Shown here piece by piece: positions 1,196-20,000 of a stretch of 20,000 bases of DNA. The stretch lies in the IMG/VR virus record IMGVR_UViG_3300001481_000036, one strand, 5' to 3'. Numbering within the stretch: position 1 is the stretch's first letter; the number at the start of each line of letters is the position of its first letter. Below the pieces are notes generated by a model. The model was given only the letters and a program-made list of their open reading frames with translations, was not told the origin of the DNA and did no database searches. Made by a program: the position numbers and the translations under genes. The DNA comes from an uncultured virus (IMG/VR IMGVR_UViG_3300001481_000036) (taxonomy: Duplodnaviria > Heunggongvirae > Uroviricota > Caudoviricetes).

Positions 1196-3322
1196 ATGGT
1201 TCAGATTCGTAAAAAGACGGGATTGGTGCAAGCATTTGATTCTAATAAAATAATAGAAGCTGTAAAAAAGTCGGCGGATAGAGTTAATGTAGAGATGCCA
1301 CCCACTAAAAATAACCGTCTTATAGAACTTGTCTTAGAAGCTATACAGGATAAGGAGATTATAGATGTTAAAGACCTTCACAAATATGTTGAATTAGCTT
1401 TGGATGAAGTGGATCATGATGTTGCTAAATCATATCGTGAATACCGTAATTATAAAATGCAGTTCGTAAAAATGTTGGATGAGGTATATAGAAAGAAATT
1501 ATCTTTAAATAATACACAGGATGCGTCTAATGCTAATGCTGATTCCGCTTTGGTTACAACACAAAAAGCTATCACTTATTCAGAACTGAATGGTGAATTG
1601 TATAGAAGATTCTTTTTAACAGATGAAGAAGAAAAAGCTATGAAGGATGGTTATATATACATTCATGATCGTGGATCTCGTCTGGATGCTAGTAACTGTT
1701 GCCTCTTCGATATGAAATCTGTTTTAACAGGTGGCTTTGAAATGGGGAATATGCACTATAATGAGCCTAAAAGTATAGGTGTTGCATTCTCTGTTATGTT
1801 AGATGTTATATTTAATGCAGGATCTAGTCAATATGGTGGCTTCACTGTATCAGAAGTTGATAAGTTACTAGCGCCTTATGCAGAAAGGTCTTATAATGAA
1901 TATATTAAAGAATATGAAAGTATTAAAGGAATGGATGACCTTAAAGGTGCTGATGAGTATGCTACTAAGAAATTAAAAAGAGAGATTGAACAACATGTAC
2001 AAGCTATGGAGATGAAGCTAAATTCATGTGAGACCTCTCGTGGCGATTATATCTTTACCTCTATTTCTTTTGGTCTTTCTAAGGATCGCTTTGGGCAAAT
2101 AATATCCTCTGCTATACTTAAAGTAAGAAAAGAAGGACAGGGTAAAGATGGTTTTAAACGTCCTGTGTTATTCCCCAAACTTACTTTTATGTATGATGAA
2201 AATCTACATGGTGAAGGAAAAGAATTAGAGTGGTTATTCTTAGAAGCGGTAGATTGTACTATGAAAGCACAATACCCAGACTTTCTTTCTATGACAGGTG
2301 ATGGGTATGCACCTTCTATTTATAAAAAGTATGGTGTTACTATTAGCCGTATGGGATGCAGAGCCAATCTATCCCCGTGGTATGAGAGAGGTGGTATAGA
2401 GCCCGCAGATGAAAATGATAAACCTGTTTATGAGGGTAGGTTTAATATGGGAGCTATCTCATTGAATTTCCCAATGATAGTAGCAAAGGCTAAAGAGGAA
2501 AGTAAAGATTTCTTTAAAGTATTGGAGTATTACTTAGATCTTTGTCGTAAAATTCATCTTCGCACCTTAGAATATTTCTCACACAAAAAAGCAGGTATAA
2601 ATCCATTAGCTTTCTGTCAGGGAGGCTTCTATAAAGGTCATAAAGATCCTGATGAAGAATTAGGAAAAGATTTTCTTAAACCTTGTACAGTGTCTTTTGG
2701 TATTACAGCTCTTAATGAAGCTACAGTAATGTATAATGGTAAATCAATATATAAAGATAAATCAGAGTTTGCATCTCAGGTTTTACAGTTTATAAATGAT
2801 TATGCAAATAAGCATAAAAAAGAAGATGGCGTACTATATGCTATTTATGGAACTCCCGCAGAATCATTAGCTTCATTACAAGTAAAACAATTCCGTAAAA
2901 AGTATGGTGTTATTAAAGGTGTATCTGATAGGGAGTATATGTCAAACTCTTTTCACATGCACGTATCCGAGGATATAACCCCAATAGAAAAGCAGGATGC
3001 AGAATACAAATGTTTCCATCTTTGTAATGGCGGAAACATAATGTACAATAGGTTTACTTCCGAATATAACAAAGACTCTTTTGTAGCTTTAATTCGTAGA
3101 GCTATGAAACTAGGGTATTACTATGGATGTAATCAATCAAAAGATTATTGTAAAAATTGCGGTAAAGAGTTTATTGATTTAGACCAATGTCCTAATTGTG
3201 GTAGTGAGGATATTGTGCGTATAGAACGTGTTTGCGGCTACCTAGGGATGTCCAGAGTAGGTGATAAAACAAGAATGAATGATGGAAAATTAGCAGAAAT
3301 AGCAGATAGAAAATCTATGTAA
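1196..3322 (+). CDS. nrdD: Anaerobic (class III) ribonucleoside-triphosphate reductase with N-terminal ATP-cone
   Basis: ATP-cone (VQIRKKTG..FDSNKIIEAV), YIHD, SNCC, SRMGCR finger loop, YGTPAES, SNSFH, Zn site CKNC..CPNC and glycyl-radical motif RVCGYLG. GGGAG SD. Confidence 0.98.
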   Translation: MVQIRKKTGLVQAFDSNKIIEAVKKSADRVNVEMPPTKNNRLIELVLEAIQDKEIIDVKDLHKYVELALDEVDHDVAKSYREYRNYKMQFVKMLDEVYRKKLSLNNTQDASNANADSALVTTQKAITYSELNGELYRRFFLTDEEEKAMKDGYIYIHDRGSRLDASNCCLFDMKSVLTGGFEMGNMHYNEPKSIGVAFSVMLDVIFNAGSSQYGGFTVSEVDKLLAPYAERSYNEYIKEYESIKGMDDLKGADEYATKKLKREIEQHVQAMEMKLNSCETSRGDYIFTSISFGLSKDRFGQIISSAILKVRKEGQGKDGFKRPVLFPKLTFMYDENLHGEGKELEWLFLEAVDCTMKAQYPDFLSMTGDGYAPSIYKKYGVTISRMGCRANLSPWYERGGIEPADENDKPVYEGRFNMGAISLNFPMIVAKAKEESKDFFKVLEYYLDLCRKIHLRTLEYFSHKKAGINPLAFCQGGFYKGHKDPDEELGKDFLKPCTVSFGITALNEATVMYNGKSIYKDKSEFASQVLQFINDYANKHKKEDGVLYAIYGTPAESLASLQVKQFRKKYGVIKGVSDREYMSNSFHMHVSEDITPIEKQDAEYKCFHLCNGGNIMYNRFTSEYNKDSFVALIRRAMKLGYYYGCNQSKDYCKNCGKEFIDLDQCPNCGSEDIVRIERVCGYLGMSRVGDKTRMNDGKLAEIADRKSM

Positions 3323-3335
3323 ATAGGGAGACTTT

Positions 3336-3818
3336 ATGAACTATCATAACATTCTTCATTGTAATGAGAATAATGGTACTGGGTTACGTGTAGTATTATT
3401 CGTATCTGGCTGTTCTCATAATTGTAAAGGCTGTCATAATCCACAAACACATGATCCTTGTTCTGGAATACCCTTCACTGAGGAAGCTAAGAAAGAAATA
3501 TTCCAAGAATTAGAGCAGGAATGGTGTACTGGATTAACACTAACAGGTGGAGATCCTTTATTCCCTGATAATCGACCTATTATTCTTTCCTTAGTAAAAG
3601 AAATAAAAGAGAGATTCCCTAATAAAACCATTTGGATTTATACTGGTTATCTTTATGATTCCATTAAAGAATGGCTTGGAGTAAAGGAAATTCTAAAATA
3701 CTGCGATGTTATTGTAGATGGCCCATTTATAGAGGAACAAAAAGAATATGGGTTACAATGGCGCGGATCAAAAAATCAACGTGTCATAGAATTAAATACA
3801 GGTAATTCACTCGTTTAA
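3336..3818 (+). CDS. nrdG: Anaerobic RNR activating radical SAM protein
   Basis: NGTGLRVVLFVSGCSHNCKGCHNP (CxxxCxxC), TGGDPL, VDGPF and WRGSKNQRVI. Lies directly after nrdD. Confidence 0.97.
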   Translation: MNYHNILHCNENNGTGLRVVLFVSGCSHNCKGCHNPQTHDPCSGIPFTEEAKKEIFQELEQEWCTGLTLTGGDPLFPDNRPIILSLVKEIKERFPNKTIWIYTGYLYDSIKEWLGVKEILKYCDVIVDGPFIEEQKEYGLQWRGSKNQRVIELNTGNSLV

Positions 3819-6142: not shown

Positions 6143-7243
6143 ATGAGAGAAAGGAAAGAGTTAGAAGGTGTAATTTCTTGTTGGAATGAGATATATCCAA
6201 ATAGGAAAAATCAGCCAACTTTGTTATTTGTAACAGATACAATATTACAAAGCATTGCTAAGGATTTAGGGTTTGTAATATGTGAAGAAAATGATAAAAC
6301 ACTTACATTTAAGTGTTTGAATTTTCCTTTAATCGGTGAGCTAGACCTTAATAAGAAAGCGAAAAATTTATCTCTATTTTTCGATCTTAATCCATATTCT
6401 TTAGTTATAAATGGAGAAGAGAGAAGTAGAGAATATACGATTACTGCATTTAAGTGTGACTTGAAGCATCGTGTAGCAGAGTTTGTATTTCTACATTATG
6501 TTGATTTACAGAAACAATTAATATCTTTACAGAAAGCATATTTAGGGTTTAGTATACAAAGTATGTATATGAATCATGTAGACACAAAGTTTGTATTAGA
6601 TTTTAATGGTATGTTTAATAAAGCAGAGTTGCTATTAAACAATATACATATACATCTAAGTAACCTTATAGGAACATCTTATTTTAGCAATTCAGTTTAT
6701 AGCTTAACAAGTAATTTTAGATGTGTACCAAAAGTATCATCTGATGGTTCATCACACAGCAATATAACATTATGTGTAAATGTTATTCCTGTTGTTGAAA
6801 AGTTAGAAAATAGAAAATGCTTTGATGCTGTTCATTCTTTTGTGAAAGAAAGACTAAAAGAACAGTATAAGGAATATTCATTAAAGGATTTAGAAAACAG
6901 AAAAGCGAATATTTCTTCCACAGATACTAGGTGTGTTTCATTTCCAGATACACTTATTCTTAATGAAACGACATTTAAAAATGTATTTCCAGACAGGCTT
7001 TTACCTGAATGGAGTTTAATGTGGGGTATGTGTTCTATATATATTACTGAAGATATATCAGATGGTCATATATTATTTATTAGTTCTTCTGATGATATGC
7101 GAAACCCTATCTGCATTGATAAAGAAAATAATAGGTATTATGTAAATGAAACAAGTAGAGATATTCTCGCTTTTAATGTTTCTATTAAAAGTAAAGATGA
7201 ATTAGTTATTGATCAGAAACTAGTAGAAAATAATAAAAACTGA
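6143..7243 (+). CDS. Hypothetical mosaic protein, possibly containing virion-protein-like fragments
   Basis: 366-aa ORF downstream of a promoter and hairpin leader. Confidence 0.85.
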   Translation: MRERKELEGVISCWNEIYPNRKNQPTLLFVTDTILQSIAKDLGFVICEENDKTLTFKCLNFPLIGELDLNKKAKNLSLFFDLNPYSLVINGEERSREYTITAFKCDLKHRVAEFVFLHYVDLQKQLISLQKAYLGFSIQSMYMNHVDTKFVLDFNGMFNKAELLLNNIHIHLSNLIGTSYFSNSVYSLTSNFRCVPKVSSDGSSHSNITLCVNVIPVVEKLENRKCFDAVHSFVKERLKEQYKEYSLKDLENRKANISSTDTRCVSFPDTLILNETTFKNVFPDRLLPEWSLMWGMCSIYITEDISDGHILFISSSDDMRNPICIDKENNRYYVNETSRDILAFNVSIKSKDELVIDQKLVENNKN

Positions 7244-7283
7244 TTGTAAAAATCGGAACTAAGCTGTATTTAGAATAAAGAGA
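7204..7283 (+). promoter_or_regulatory. Promoter-containing repeat cassette, copy 2
   Basis: TTGTAA(7244)-17bp-TATTTA(7267). Shares AGTTATTGATCAGAAAC, AAAAACTGATTG, AAAAATCG, TAAGCTGTAT and AGAATAAAGAGA with copy 1. Confidence 0.7.
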
Positions 7284-7350
7284 ACCTGTTTGGTTCTCTT
7301 TTTGTTACTGGATGGTATTCCAGACTCCCGTTGGAGACTCACATTTGAGG
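7277..7350 (+). other. Four-hairpin structured 5' leader
   Basis: AAAGAGAACC/GGTTCTCTTT, CTGGA/TCCAG, CTCC/GGAG and CTCA/TGAG. The last hairpin overlaps the GAGG SD. Confidence 0.55.
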
Positions 7351-7355
7351 TAAGT

Positions 7356-8576
7356 ATGCGTGTTGCAGTAAAGAACATGAGTGGTGTATTTATACATTCC
7401 ACCACTCCACGAAAAGCTAGGCTTCTTCTAAAAGAGAAGAAAGCTGTCATAGAATCAAACAATCCTTTCACTATTCGTCTTTTGTTTTCTAAAAGTGAAT
7501 GTGGATTAAAGGATTCTGAATCATTAAACAGACTTAACGCAGGCTTATTGTCTGAAAAGGATAACACTATGTGTGATGATAGAAAAGAAATAGAAGAATT
7601 GCACAATGCTTATGGCGACTACATACAACCAAGTCTAAATGTTATAATGGCTAATCCTAAGAACAAAAGGATAAAATGGTGTAGTAAAGATAGCAATTCT
7701 GCAAACGGTGAGAATAGTTCTGAATCATTTGTACAAACCTTATATGATGCTTGCACCATGTTATATCAGCAAACAGATGGCCGATATTATGGTAACTTTG
7801 TACATATTGGTAAAAGAGGATTTGAGCTTTTACAAAGACTTGACCCTAAAAGATTCTGGAAAATGGATAATTGGGTAGGAATTGATGATGCTATAAAAGT
7901 ACACTATATCGCGACTATGCCAGAAAACAATTTTATTGTAAGTATAAATAATAATTATTTTAAGGATCGTGATAAATTCATTGTGGGGTCTATAGTGGAT
8001 GAAGAATGTTCTGAGAAAAGTGAATCAGAGGAAGCTATTAAACAACAGGAACAGTCAGACAATAATAAGTCTGAAAAGGAAAGCATTATGAGTAATGAAA
8101 TACATATCCCCAAAACACATCTTATTTTTGGTGCAGTAGGATGTGGTAAAACTACGCTATTAGCTAAACTGGTTAGAGATAGGCTAAATAATGGTGAACA
8201 AGTTGCACGTGTTTTATATAATAAAAATAAAGACGTACACTCTAAACTATTTCATTCAGAGAATGGAGGGTATTGTACTTTGATTGAATTTCATGGGAAA
8301 GACGCATATTCACCAGTTGAAGCAAGTTATCATCTGATGAAAGCGTGTGAATTTCCAGCTTCTATTACAACAATAGTGTTAGATGATATTAATAAATTTT
8401 TAATACACGGTGATTACGATCCTCAGGAATATTTCCGTGAGTTCTCTAGGGTATGTCGTGAGAACAATATAGATTTCATCTGTACTTTAGGTGCTGATTC
8501 AGATAAAAATGAGGTCTATCACAAACTTCCAGAAATCTATGAACGATTCTCTGATATTATAACTGTTTTGAAATAG
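7356..8576 (+). CDS. Fusion protein: PLMP/RRXRR domain + capsid(gp23)-A-domain-like module + P-loop NTPase
   Basis: ATG 7356 follows GAGG. The N-terminus VAVKNMSGVFIHSTTPRKARLLLKEKKAVIESNNPFTIRLL matches the IscB N-terminal pattern. Walker A GAVGCGKT (8130-8153) and Walker B IVLDD. Confidence 0.8.
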   Translation: MRVAVKNMSGVFIHSTTPRKARLLLKEKKAVIESNNPFTIRLLFSKSECGLKDSESLNRLNAGLLSEKDNTMCDDRKEIEELHNAYGDYIQPSLNVIMANPKNKRIKWCSKDSNSANGENSSESFVQTLYDACTMLYQQTDGRYYGNFVHIGKRGFELLQRLDPKRFWKMDNWVGIDDAIKVHYIATMPENNFIVSINNNYFKDRDKFIVGSIVDEECSEKSESEEAIKQQEQSDNNKSEKESIMSNEIHIPKTHLIFGAVGCGKTTLLAKLVRDRLNNGEQVARVLYNKNKDVHSKLFHSENGGYCTLIEFHGKDAYSPVEASYHLMKACEFPASITTIVLDDINKFLIHGDYDPQEYFREFSRVCRENNIDFICTLGADSDKNEVYHKLPEIYERFSDIITVLK

Positions 8577-14893: not shown

Positions 14894-15427
14894 ATGTCTA
14901 AAACATTCTTTATTGCAGATACACATTTTAATCACGAACGCATAATTTCTATCTGCGAGCGTCCATTCTCAGATGTAGAAGAAATGAACAAAACATTAAT
15001 AGAGAATTGGAATAGCATTGTTGAAGACGAAGACATTGTGTGGGTTTTAGGCGACTATTTTTATTTTCCAGAACCACTAAAAAGCAGTGTACCACTGTTA
15101 GTATGCAGAGAAATTACAAATAATCTTAAAGGAATAAAAAACCTAATTATAGGAAATCACGACACACAAGATCCTGAATACTATAAATCATCTGGATTTG
15201 AATTTGTCTCACCATATCCGATTATTTATGACGATTTCTTTATCCTATCACACGAACCACTACTTCTATCTAATACTACTCCATACTTTAATTTATACGG
15301 ACATGTTCATAGTGATCCCAGATTTGGAGACACTTCAACTTCAAAATGTGTTTCAGTTGAGAGAATCAACTACACTCCAGTTTCATTAGAAAAAATAAAG
15401 TTTGAAATTGAAACATGGATATTTTAA
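14894..15427 (+). CDS. Calcineurin-like metallophosphoesterase
   Basis: Motifs DTHF, LGD, GNHD, SHEP and GHVH. Confidence 0.93.
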   Translation: MSKTFFIADTHFNHERIISICERPFSDVEEMNKTLIENWNSIVEDEDIVWVLGDYFYFPEPLKSSVPLLVCREITNNLKGIKNLIIGNHDTQDPEYYKSSGFEFVSPYPIIYDDFFILSHEPLLLSNTTPYFNLYGHVHSDPRFGDTSTSKCVSVERINYTPVSLEKIKFEIETWIF

Positions 15428-19064: not shown

Positions 19065-20000
19065 ATGGTTAAATTAAAGAGGGTGAATGAGAATCAGTTG
19101 GATTTATTTAGTTGGAAACCTAAAGGCGGTAATGCCGTAGATACCGTCTATGATGGTTTATCTGATACGGATGATAAAGACTGGTTTAATGTCTCATATC
19201 TGTATAAAAAATATGGTGAGTATAATCGCAGATTTTTTAACTCTGCTTTACCCGAGTTACCTTTGTATATAAAGACATACAAACACGCTTTGGGTGTCTG
19301 TATTTCATTAGGCAGTAAGTCAAGGAATGAAATCAATCTCAAAGAGATTTGTATTTCCAAACTTAAATTTAACAACAGATTCTCTATGGAGCAAGTCCTT
19401 GTCCATGAGATGTGTCATGCCTACCAGATTCATATATTGTGTGATAATTCCCTTACTCGATATTCTATGGATGCCAAACAGGGATCAGGTAGTCAGGGAC
19501 ACGGCCCATTATTCTTTAAAGCGGCTGATTTAGTGAATAACTCTCCAGAAAATAAAGAAGGGTTTAAAATAACACAGTATAATGAGGATATTAACACGGC
19601 GCATAGAATAGGCGGTAAATCCACCTCTGGTTATTGCTATATTAAACCAACCCTAGAAGGTCTTTTTGTCTATACCATAGCCGACACGCCATCTAATAAA
19701 GAGAATATAGACTATCTTAAACATTATGAGCCTGAGTATATGTACAGCTATAAGGATGCAGAAGCAAAGAGTATCTGTACCACTCATTTTGGCCGTACCA
19801 AAGGTTATATTTATCCTTGGCAGAAAATCATAGAGAGTATTTGTAATAAAATCATTAATGGAGATCTTATCCCTCTGGTAGAAGATAATAAATTAGAGAA
19901 AAAGTATATTATATACAAAGATGATGTTGTTTCGGTCTCTATGGTAGAGCCTTTTGGTAAAGAGATGAAAGAGGTGGTTATGAACAAGCCATATTCCATA
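19065..20000 (+). CDS. SprT-like zinc metalloprotease, 3'-truncated, with N-terminal MVKLKRVNE peptide (not in the ORF track)
   Basis: GAGGAGG upstream and the frame is open to the window end. YNRRFFNSALP, VLVHEMCH (HExxH at 19404-19418) and downstream GHGPLF. Confidence 0.88.
   Translation, partial: MVKLKRVNENQLDLFSWKPKGGNAVDTVYDGLSDTDDKDWFNVSYLYKKYGEYNRRFFNSALPELPLYIKTYKHALGVCISLGSKSRNEINLKEICISKLKFNNRFSMEQVLVHEMCHAYQIHILCDNSLTRYSMDAKQGSGSQGHGPLFFKAADLVNNSPENKEGFKITQYNEDINTAHRIGGKSTSGYCYIKPTLEGLFVYTIADTPSNKENIDYLKHYEPEYMYSYKDAEAKSICTTHFGRTKGYIYPWQKIIESICNKIINGDLIPLVEDNKLEKKYIIYKDDVVSVSMVEPFGKEMKEVVMNKPYSI

Follow-up and report, generated by a model that had tools for sequence, protein, structure and literature searches.

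We detected a homologue of the PLMP domain of the nuclease IscB at the start of an otherwise unrelated phage gene, behind a leader of small RNA hairpins that accompanies this domain in all family loci with DNA. The gene, P0001, lies on a stretch of 20,000 nucleotides (nt), hereafter the window, from an uncultured virus of the Caudoviricetes (IMG/VR record IMGVR_UViG_3300001481_000036), and encodes a protein of 406 amino acids (aa). The nuclease itself has been lost, while the domain and the leader are both under purifying selection. Based on these observations and on the structural literature on IscB and its relative IsrB, we propose that leader and domain form a portable unit that represses its own translation ahead of a shuffled cargo, a reading to which we give a probability of about 40%. 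The features on which it depends are the following:

7356..8576, + strand: open reading frame (ORF) P0001, with ATG at 7356 and stop codon at 8574-8576 (406 codons plus stop)
7356..7499, + strand: PLMP-like domain (aa 1-48), predicted beta-beta-alpha-beta-beta, with PLMP changed to FIHS and the TTPRKARLLLKEKKAV helix kept
7277..7301, + strand: hairpin 1, intrinsic terminator of the upstream ORF found by a terminator scan (10 pairs, 5-nt loop, T-rich tail)
7308..7323, + strand: hairpin 2, CUGGA / UCCAG with a 6-nt loop, a covarying stem
7325..7336, + strand: hairpin 3, CUCC CGUU GGAG, stem invariant in 7/7 distinct leaders
7338..7349, + strand: hairpin 4, CUCA CAUU UGAG, invariant in 7/7 distinct leaders

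An IscB-type PLMP domain without the nuclease

The N-terminus of P0001 matched the Pfam family RRXRR (PF14239), with aa 5-47 corresponding to profile positions 3-45 of 174. The whole protein scored 22.9 bits (E-value, E, 8.6e-5) and the first 55 aa alone 27.9 bits (E 2.6e-6), the latter above the family cut-off of 25 bits. The NCBIfam model guided_IscB (NF040563) matched aa 5-46 of P0001 at 26.5 bits, far under its equivalog cut-off of 175 bits, and also matched the corresponding residues in four architectures of the family (E 3e-6 to 4e-8), again far short of that cut-off. When a profile of the family N-terminus was compared by hhalign with 14 IscB proteins from the collected loci, the two aligned at a probability of 98.4% (E 6.8e-15) over columns 1-48 only, and a whole-family profile gave an alignment again limited to these columns. 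Besides, identity to the PLMP domains of IscB loci was 43-54% by tblastn, and seven of the nine listed matches in a PDB sequence search were IscB or IsrB N-termini, each of them weak singly (E 0.12-0.5).

The PLMP motif is absent as such, FIHS standing in its place in the window, and H14 of this segment is nearly invariant across the family. The helix that follows, TTPRKARLLLKEKKAV, is the best-conserved portion of the domain, and the string TTPRKARLL is common to the family helix and the PLMP seed of DtIsrB printed in PMC9581776. A full-length AlphaFold2 (AF2) model placed strands at residues 3-6, 12-16, 30-35 and 38-42 and a helix at 18-26, with a predicted local distance difference test score (pLDDT) of about 90. 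This strand-strand-helix-strand-strand order agrees with the published PLMP description. A model of the isolated domain was poor (pLDDT 61).

Neither a split RuvC with its arginine-rich bridge helix nor HNH or TI/WED domains were found in P0001 with Pfam, NCBIfam and hhalign, all alignments ending at about residue 48, and the remainder of the protein matches capsid protein and RecA-like folds instead of nuclease domains. We conclude that aa 1-48 are a true PLMP-domain homologue and that the protein itself is not an IscB. The initial annotation of this DNA had recognised an IscB-type N-terminal domain with FIHS for PLMP and without RuvC, HNH or bridge helix, and had named Pfam RRXRR as the family to look for; on all of this the profile searches agree with it. 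On the other hand, its feature had ended too early, at 7487, a coordinate that is codon 44 of the 406-codon ORF. The 406-aa chimera, the nature of hairpin 1 as a terminator and a real IscB locus with its HEARO RNA elsewhere in the phage had escaped it.

The domain is shared by a family of proteins. A near-length search returned 65 homologues at E <=0.001 among 2,689 candidates, a shorter-length search with residues 1-60 retained 16 of 19 candidates, and a HMMER pass with the 60-aa N-terminus over 1.84 billion representatives yielded 44 proteins at E <=0.001. Fourteen of these 44 representatives (of 50% clusters) were at least 68% identical to the query, the shortest having 71 aa and the longest 684 aa. 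A stand-alone domain is found as well, in the form of a 59-aa ORF (locus L003) behind the family leader in a 204-kb, 95%-complete relative (G001) without IscB and without the ATPase cargo. Further short forms end near the end of the domain, namely P0075 (65 aa), P0066 (69 aa, on contigs of up to 262 kb) and P0074 (71 aa), although such short proteins may be cut by a contig end. No DNA or protein match to the gene was found among INPHARED phages, and GTDB genomes held no family member and one IscB-like match only. In IMG/VR, a single-protein query found nothing, an alignment query found one family locus and 10 IscB loci, and a leader-pattern query found only the contig of that same family locus. 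Queries with P0082 and P0086 for more diverged loci returned none.

For codons 1-54, the ratio of nonsynonymous to synonymous substitution rates (dN/dS) was 0.05-0.22 in 21/21 pairs, and the domain is under purifying selection. These values come close to refuting the view that N-terminus and leader are what is left, decaying and without function, of an IscB element that once landed ahead of a phage gene. Such an origin would be in line with the descent of the domain, and possibly of the leader, from IscB and with the presence of IscB elements in this and related phages. We nevertheless regard a remnant as hardly credible, as the 14 representatives close to the 60-aa query span many architectures and intact stand-alone copies exist.

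Conserved hairpins ahead of the domain

The minimum free energy (MFE) structure of 7244-7370 shows all four hairpins (z -2.74, 3 of 200 shuffles equally good), and this z value is due to hairpin 1. Hairpin 1 starts 34 nt past the stop of the upstream ORF (6143..7243), and three of seven relatives (L003, L019 and L020) lack it ahead of the homologous gene. Since it is missing in those loci, where the upstream context differs, it belongs to the upstream gene. The remaining three hairpins are each spaced by a single A, and the 3' arm of hairpin 4 overlaps the Shine-Dalgarno (SD) sequence GAGG (7347-7350), holding its GAG, with 5 nt to the ATG. Four tandem hairpins, the first terminator-like, the last three one A apart and the last covering the SD, had all been described in the initial annotation and are recovered here, but its assignment of hairpin 1 to the leader module has to be withdrawn. 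In L018, about 60-80 nt before ATG 2501, the terminator loop and upper stem are inverted (CCAAACAGG versus CCTGTTTGG in the window), which looks like a flip of the palindrome centre. In a contig of the bovine-gut run X12 (record 1), the 28 nt between window positions 7286 and 7315 are replaced by 301 other letters; the replaced stretch spans from the first arm of the terminator to the loop of hairpin 2.

Folded alone, hairpins 2-4 formed the MFE structure in 7/7 folds. They precede the domain in 8/8 family loci with DNA, representing seven distinct leaders (L015 is the contig of the window, and L019 and L020 are identical in the leader), and the conserved upstream structure that the initial annotation had expected in homologues is therefore present. 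The pairing of leader and domain holds despite three upstream contexts and at least four downstream architectures.

Comparison of L015 with L014, the most diverged pair, separates the leader from its surroundings. Not one of the 36 nt preceding the ATG differs, while codons 1-54 differ at 34 positions, 20 of them third positions, and 51% of synonymous sites differ (19 of 37.3). The chance of finding 0 changes in the 27-nt core (ACTCC to GAGG) is about 5e-9. As the core of L014 remained unchanged while synonymous sites drifted by 51%, the leader is under constraint and does not just reflect recent exchange.

Hairpin 2 has four stem versions, CUGGA/UCCAG, CUGG/CCAG, CAGGA(A)/(U)UCCUG and CAUGG(G)/(U)CCAUG, with both sides changed in 3/5 pairs and no one-sided changes. 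A further variant, CAUGGA/UCCAUG, was read from a loose end of a run contig. The covariation score was 0.139, compared with 0.032 in shuffles, and 0/500 shuffles reached it, on an alignment fitted to the structure, which favours the score. Hairpin 3 varies in its loop alone, by G7330>A in run X2 and by C7329>A in L017. Four public runs, labelled as goat gut, bovine gut, gut metagenome and 'organism A', contributed contigs of >=80% likeness. These brought further hairpin-2 variants and T>C at 7351; among the differences listed (33 more were unlisted), none fell in the stems of hairpins 3 and 4. Support for the leader is thus conservation and covariation, not folding energy. Besides, the leader core is unique in the 252-kb genome at <=3 mismatches, which argues for a gene-specific motif and not a general promoter or ribosome-binding site (RBS) motif; a promoter scan listed no promoter in this region, nor a site at the transcription start predicted in the initial annotation.

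A proposed autogenous repressor unit and its alternatives

PMC9581776 and PMC9640706 describe that the PLMP domain of IsrB/IscB, for which the initial annotation had named a contact with the omegaRNA, holds tandem 3' omegaRNA hairpins, the SD included, that these terminal hairpins directly precede the nuclease's own start codon, and that the PLMP fold resembles IF3-N. We favour autogenous repression since the homologous domain binds tandem SD-adjacent hairpins and the leader offers such hairpins. By analogy with OMEGA systems, we infer that the domain would bind RNA, that its target would be its own leader, and that repression would follow. The proposed unit would consist of a leader of about 50 nt, with three small hairpins of which the last includes the SD, and of the 48-aa domain descended from the IscB PLMP. 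The phage would have kept one protein-RNA contact, the guide scaffold and the nuclease having been lost. Once made, the protein would attach through its PLMP-like domain to the hairpins of the mRNA that encodes it and stabilise the weak SD-containing stem, and further translation would be repressed. Alone, the 4-bp SD stem would be too weak to block ribosomes, whereas a protein-held stem could do so. The cargo behind the unit would be exchangeable, here a head-protein fragment with a small RecA/KaiC/DnaB-like ATPase, and its dose would be self-limited, being fused behind the same feedback loop. The stand-alone 59-aa form in a phage without IscB and cargo suggests that the unit works by itself.

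Domestication of the PLMP domain together with a minimal RNA partner, as put forward in the initial annotation, is supported with regard to the domain, its selection and its linkage to the leader, while descent of the leader from omegaRNA is only suggestive. This idea, strengthened by the comparative data and the structural literature, is the best available explanation, still unproven and short of even odds. Somewhat less probable again, as a broader statement, is that an OMEGA contact at the RBS, freed from nuclease and guide, circulates in ruminant-gut jumbo phages as a portable repressor-operator cassette, behind which capsid-protein fragments, RecA-like ATPases and other cargo are swapped. 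Should this hold, an OMEGA ribonucleoprotein interface would for the first time have been exapted without RNA guidance, and this would provide a natural test of the proposal that the PLMP-SD contact regulates IscB/IsrB expression. The role of PLMP has so far been deduced only from contacts in cryo-electron microscopy. A PLMP protein that stands alone at 59 aa, behind a partner-like leader of 50 nt, would make the RNA-binding and SD-contact function testable alone. It would also show that phages reuse pieces of RNA-guided nucleases smaller than the nuclease.

The likeness to OMEGA systems lies in a homologous domain and in tandem small hairpins just before the start codon, one with the SD, as for SL7/SL8 in the published structures. 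The differences are the lack of RuvC, bridge helix, HNH, TI, WED, guide and HEARO scaffold, FIHS in place of PLMP, a leader of about 50 nt instead of 200-400 nt, and fusion of the domain to unrelated cargo or its occurrence alone. Judged by titles and abstracts, full-text literature searches turned up no PLMP domain outside IscB/IsrB and none lacking a nuclease. Akin to the present case are the TnpB-like nuclease-dead repressors (TldR), some of them phage-encoded, in which part of an RNA-guided nuclease of the transposon type has taken on a regulatory role. TldR keeps the whole protein and a guide RNA and acts on DNA, whereas here no more than the 48-aa domain and perhaps two or three hairpins are left, and no guide is possible.

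Phages are known to use autogenous translational operators, as in T4 gp32, gp43 and RegA and in the MS2 coat protein with its operator hairpin. The logic proposed here would be the same, a protein binding a small structure over its own RBS and limiting its synthesis; the protein folds are unrelated, and our proposal comes from sequence comparison.

A complete OMEGA locus is present in the same phage (L001:1222-2739; G000:C1, about 131.5-133.0 kb), outside the window and about 29 kb upstream of the P0001 gene. The phage's own IscB has 413 aa, scores 388 bits to guided_IscB and shows visible PLMP, RuvC-I, bridge helix and HNH motifs, and a HEARO RNA (RF02033) of 136.9 bits before the gene ends 55 nt before its ATG. 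A module working with this IscB-omegaRNA was considered as a general explanation and set aside, since the 59-aa form with its leader occurs in a phage, G001, that lacks IscB. The HEARO/omegaRNA search suggested for the leader in the initial annotation was negative: it returned no HEARO match between 6500 and 9000 with E of up to 10 allowed, and L002, L003 and L014 had none that reached the gathering score. The same search did recover the HEARO RNA ahead of the phage's real iscB. Rfam searches of the leader at E up to 10 returned sub-threshold chance matches only.

Ten other IMG/VR loci and 56 other metagenome loci with the N-terminal pattern were read, from the first 75 residues of each, as IscB-type genes; most have PLMP or PMMP followed by a RuvC-I motif, and several are cut or frameshifted. 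In a phage IscB clade (L004-L013, L069-L076), the stretch from the HEARO end to the ATG contains TAAC, a CAGGN...NCCUG hairpin and ACUUAUGUUGAAUAAACAUU, and resembles TTAC, hairpin 2 and ACUCCCGUUGGAGACUCACAUU of the family. The hairpin of this clade, about 60 nt before each iscB ATG, itself covaries (CAGGA/UCCUG, CAGGG/CCCUG, CAGAG/CUCUG) while ACUUAUGUUGAAUAAACAUU is constant. Local alignment of the leader regions scored better than 2,000/2,000 dinucleotide shuffles for L015-L004 and for L003-L005, and better than 1,977/2,000 for L003-L004. Comparison of the leader with the terminal region of the phage's own IscB was not significant (score 14, reached by 428/2000 shuffles). Descent of the leader from the 3' end of an omegaRNA is plausible, not established, the sequence evidence being only suggestive.

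Several observations weigh against autogenous repression by a former omegaRNA partner. The remaining 47 of the 50 leader pairs aligned no better than shuffles, and a covariance model of the leader found nothing significant in 67 IscB loci, the only match in the right place being L005:2940-2996 (12.8 bits, E 1.7). Recognition of hairpins by the IscB PLMP takes place, in the words of PMC9581776/PMC9640706, 'mainly through sequence-independent interactions', and the PLMP motif, which in IscB contacts RuvC and omegaRNA, is the one replaced by FIHS here. Hairpins 2-4 were no more stable than shuffles (z -0.13, +0.30, +0.22, -0.60, +0.01, -0.58 and -1.61), and hairpins 3 and 4 have only 4 bp each with stems that never vary, so that covariation is uninformative for them. 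Their strict invariance would also suit a factor of any kind that recognises the sequence, or a site acting at the DNA level. Finally, the DNA of L015 agrees with that of L016/L017 at 92-97% from -120 to +180 of the ATG, at 40-60% in the interior and at 83-92% in the last ~100 nt, and with a 5' arm so much better preserved than the interior, conservation may partly reflect recent recombination.

A DNA-level site would mean that the two palindromes, CTCC-N4-GGAG and CTCA-N4-TGAG, serve as operators, bound by a transcription factor of phage or host, and not as RNA hairpins. Besides the invariance of both palindromes and the folding energy, their position between a terminator and a start codon, where a promoter or operator is needed, would suit this role. 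The half-sites have just 4 bp, however, the uniqueness of the motif in the genome leaves no regulon, the promoter scan lists none here and the neighbouring hairpin 2 covaries like an RNA stem, which together make DNA operators very unlikely.

The mosaic of L015 and L016/L017 could also mean that the conserved ends serve chiefly as homology arms at a hot spot of cassette exchange, the domain acting at the protein level, in oligomerisation or localisation, and making no RNA contact. Reassortment of middle and ATPase types (as in P0014) and the 11-mer TCTGAAAAGGA at both module junctions (see below) are consistent with such exchange. Homology arms need no compensatory changes, whereas hairpin 2 has them, and the leader core of L014 stayed intact during its synonymous drift; we therefore consider this explanation unlikely and retain autogenous repression through the leader as the preferred one.

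Cargo, module junctions and neighbouring genes

P0001 joins three parts into a chimera, the PLMP domain of an IscB, a segment of the phage's capsid protein and an ATPase of RecA-like fold, encoded on the + strand in the order PLMP-like domain, linker, capsid-protein-like domain, linker, ATPase. In the AF2 model, built from a 52-sequence alignment, three folded parts (aa 1-50, 87-220 and 250-406) are connected by disordered linkers (aa 55-86 and 221-248). Searches of P0001 with PADLOC and PHROGs gave weak P-loop matches only. The parts behind the PLMP-like domain are as follows:

7551..7571, + strand: junction 1, SD-like at a module boundary, TCTGAAAAGGA followed by 7 nt and the in-frame ATG 7569 (M72)
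7635..7988, + strand: middle domain (aa 94-211), a homologue of residues 317-439 in the major head protein of this phage
8070..8090, + strand: junction 2, the 11-mer TCTGAAAAGGA again, followed by 7 nt and the in-frame ATG 8088 (M245)
8103..8573, + strand: RecA-superfamily P-loop core (aa 250-406)
8130-8156, + strand: Walker A, GAVGCGKTT, conserved in the family
aa 339-344: Walker B-like strand TIVLDD, conserved in the family

Queried with aa 72-406, the phage's own genome gave a second match at G000:C1:52394-52768 (E 1.2e-7). It lies in the ORF of the major head protein (481 aa; phrog_138, E 9.8e-37). By BLASTP, aa 94-211 and aa 317-439 of the head protein share 27% identity over 126 aa (E 5e-10). 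Structural comparison of model residues 80-216 with VIA-align gave encapsulin 9i8e (Z 10.2), the YSD1 capsid 6xgp (Z 10.2) and T4 6uzc (Z 10.0), so that the middle domain resembles HK97-type and encapsulin structures at Z about 10. A complete capsid fold was not found, as only aa 94-211 align, to 317-439 of the 481 residues. With only about a quarter of the capsid protein present, the domain cannot form a shell by itself. The head-protein gene lies at L081:553-1998, its fragment being reused in a non-capsid protein, and the family has three types of middle module.

The ATPase core contains a Walker A motif of the form GxxxxGK[TS], a Walker B aspartate and a RecA-like core, which place it in the RecA superfamily; its invariant or near-invariant columns include G259, C263, G264, K265, T266 and D343. 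Pfam gave weak, sub-threshold P-loop matches only. For residues about 250-406, VIA-align gave thymidine kinase TK1 (2orw, Z 13.0), KaiC (9ofh, Z 12.9), T4 gp41 (Z 12.3) and Twinkle, T7 gp4 and DnaB (Z 12.2), with PH0284 also in the Z 12-13 group of KaiC, gp41 and DnaB, and RadA, RAD51 paralogues and Rho (Z 9.5-9.6) lower. The best Foldseek matches were KaiC (E 7.5e-6). The core is thus like those of Rho, DnaB, T7 gp4, T4 gp41 and KaiC (Z 9.5-12.9), with Walker A and the Walker B-like aspartate kept. It differs from RecA-type motors in its length of only about 157 aa, and thymidine-kinase-type folds score equally.

Another reading is allowed by the architecture, with a nucleic-acid-binding domain at the N-terminus, a linker modelled as disordered, and a RecA-like core whose structural neighbours include Rho, DnaB, T7 gp4 and T4 gp41. 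In this reading, the PLMP-like domain would target the ATPase cargo to some other structured RNA in the manner of the Rho N-terminal domain, with a host RNA and the omegaRNA of the phage's IscB as candidates. The leader would then be conserved for an unrelated cause, e.g., translation initiation or another regulator. The intact IscB of this phage and its HEARO RNA would provide a target. We regard this as rather unlikely, considering that the domain also stands alone in short ORFs such as that of L003 behind the same leader, that the near-complete 204-kb relative has neither IscB nor ATPase cargo, and that the tie between leader and domain in 8/8 loci would stay unexplained. The combination of a RecA-like core and a capsid fragment at a swapped locus may point to an accessory role of the cargo in assembly or in phage-phage or phage-host conflict.

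The 11-mer TCTGAAAAGGA occurs twice in the window, only at the two module boundaries, and 36/200 shuffles also give at least two occurrences. At junction 1, GAAAAGGA followed by ATG is kept in 6/6 distinct fused loci, and homologues lacking the N-terminus begin at the Met of this junction (P0062). We read the junctions as SD-like sites with start codons of formerly separate genes, which may still yield shorter products. T7 gp4 has two forms, and the in-frame internal starts recall them.

Apart from the stand-alone domain, the family comprises proteins with domain and ATPase (240-269 aa), with domain, capsid-like module and ATPase (about 406-443 aa), and with two capsid-like modules (P0004). 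Other cargo follows the domain in P0071, P0070, P0063, P0064, P0065 and P0037, and domain-less forms starting at the first-junction Met are known from P0062 and five more proteins (340-348 aa). The modules reassort, P0014 combining another middle type with the ATPase type of the window, and this reassorting chimera marks a fast-evolving accessory locus in uncultured jumbo phages. In P0004 (587 aa), two different capsid-like modules stand in tandem, each after an SEKDxTMC junction, and P0044 has a partial duplicate of the Walker A segment ahead of the real one.

The source record is a virus contig of 252,372 bp, 94% complete according to CheckV. The window has a G+C content of 30-35%, and every long ORF lies on the + strand. 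The other ORFs in the window (20 scanned) were mostly without a family match. A metallophosphoesterase (phrog_547, E 1.6e-44) is encoded at 14894-15427, and an ORF with an SprT-like domain (E 1.9e-9) at 19065-20000 runs past the window edge. The stretch at 1196-3818 encodes NrdD, a ribonucleotide reductase of the anaerobic type with an ATP-cone (E 6.5e-115), and NrdG, the activase of NrdD (Fer4_12, E 2.1e-49), and their presence fits a phage of anaerobic hosts.

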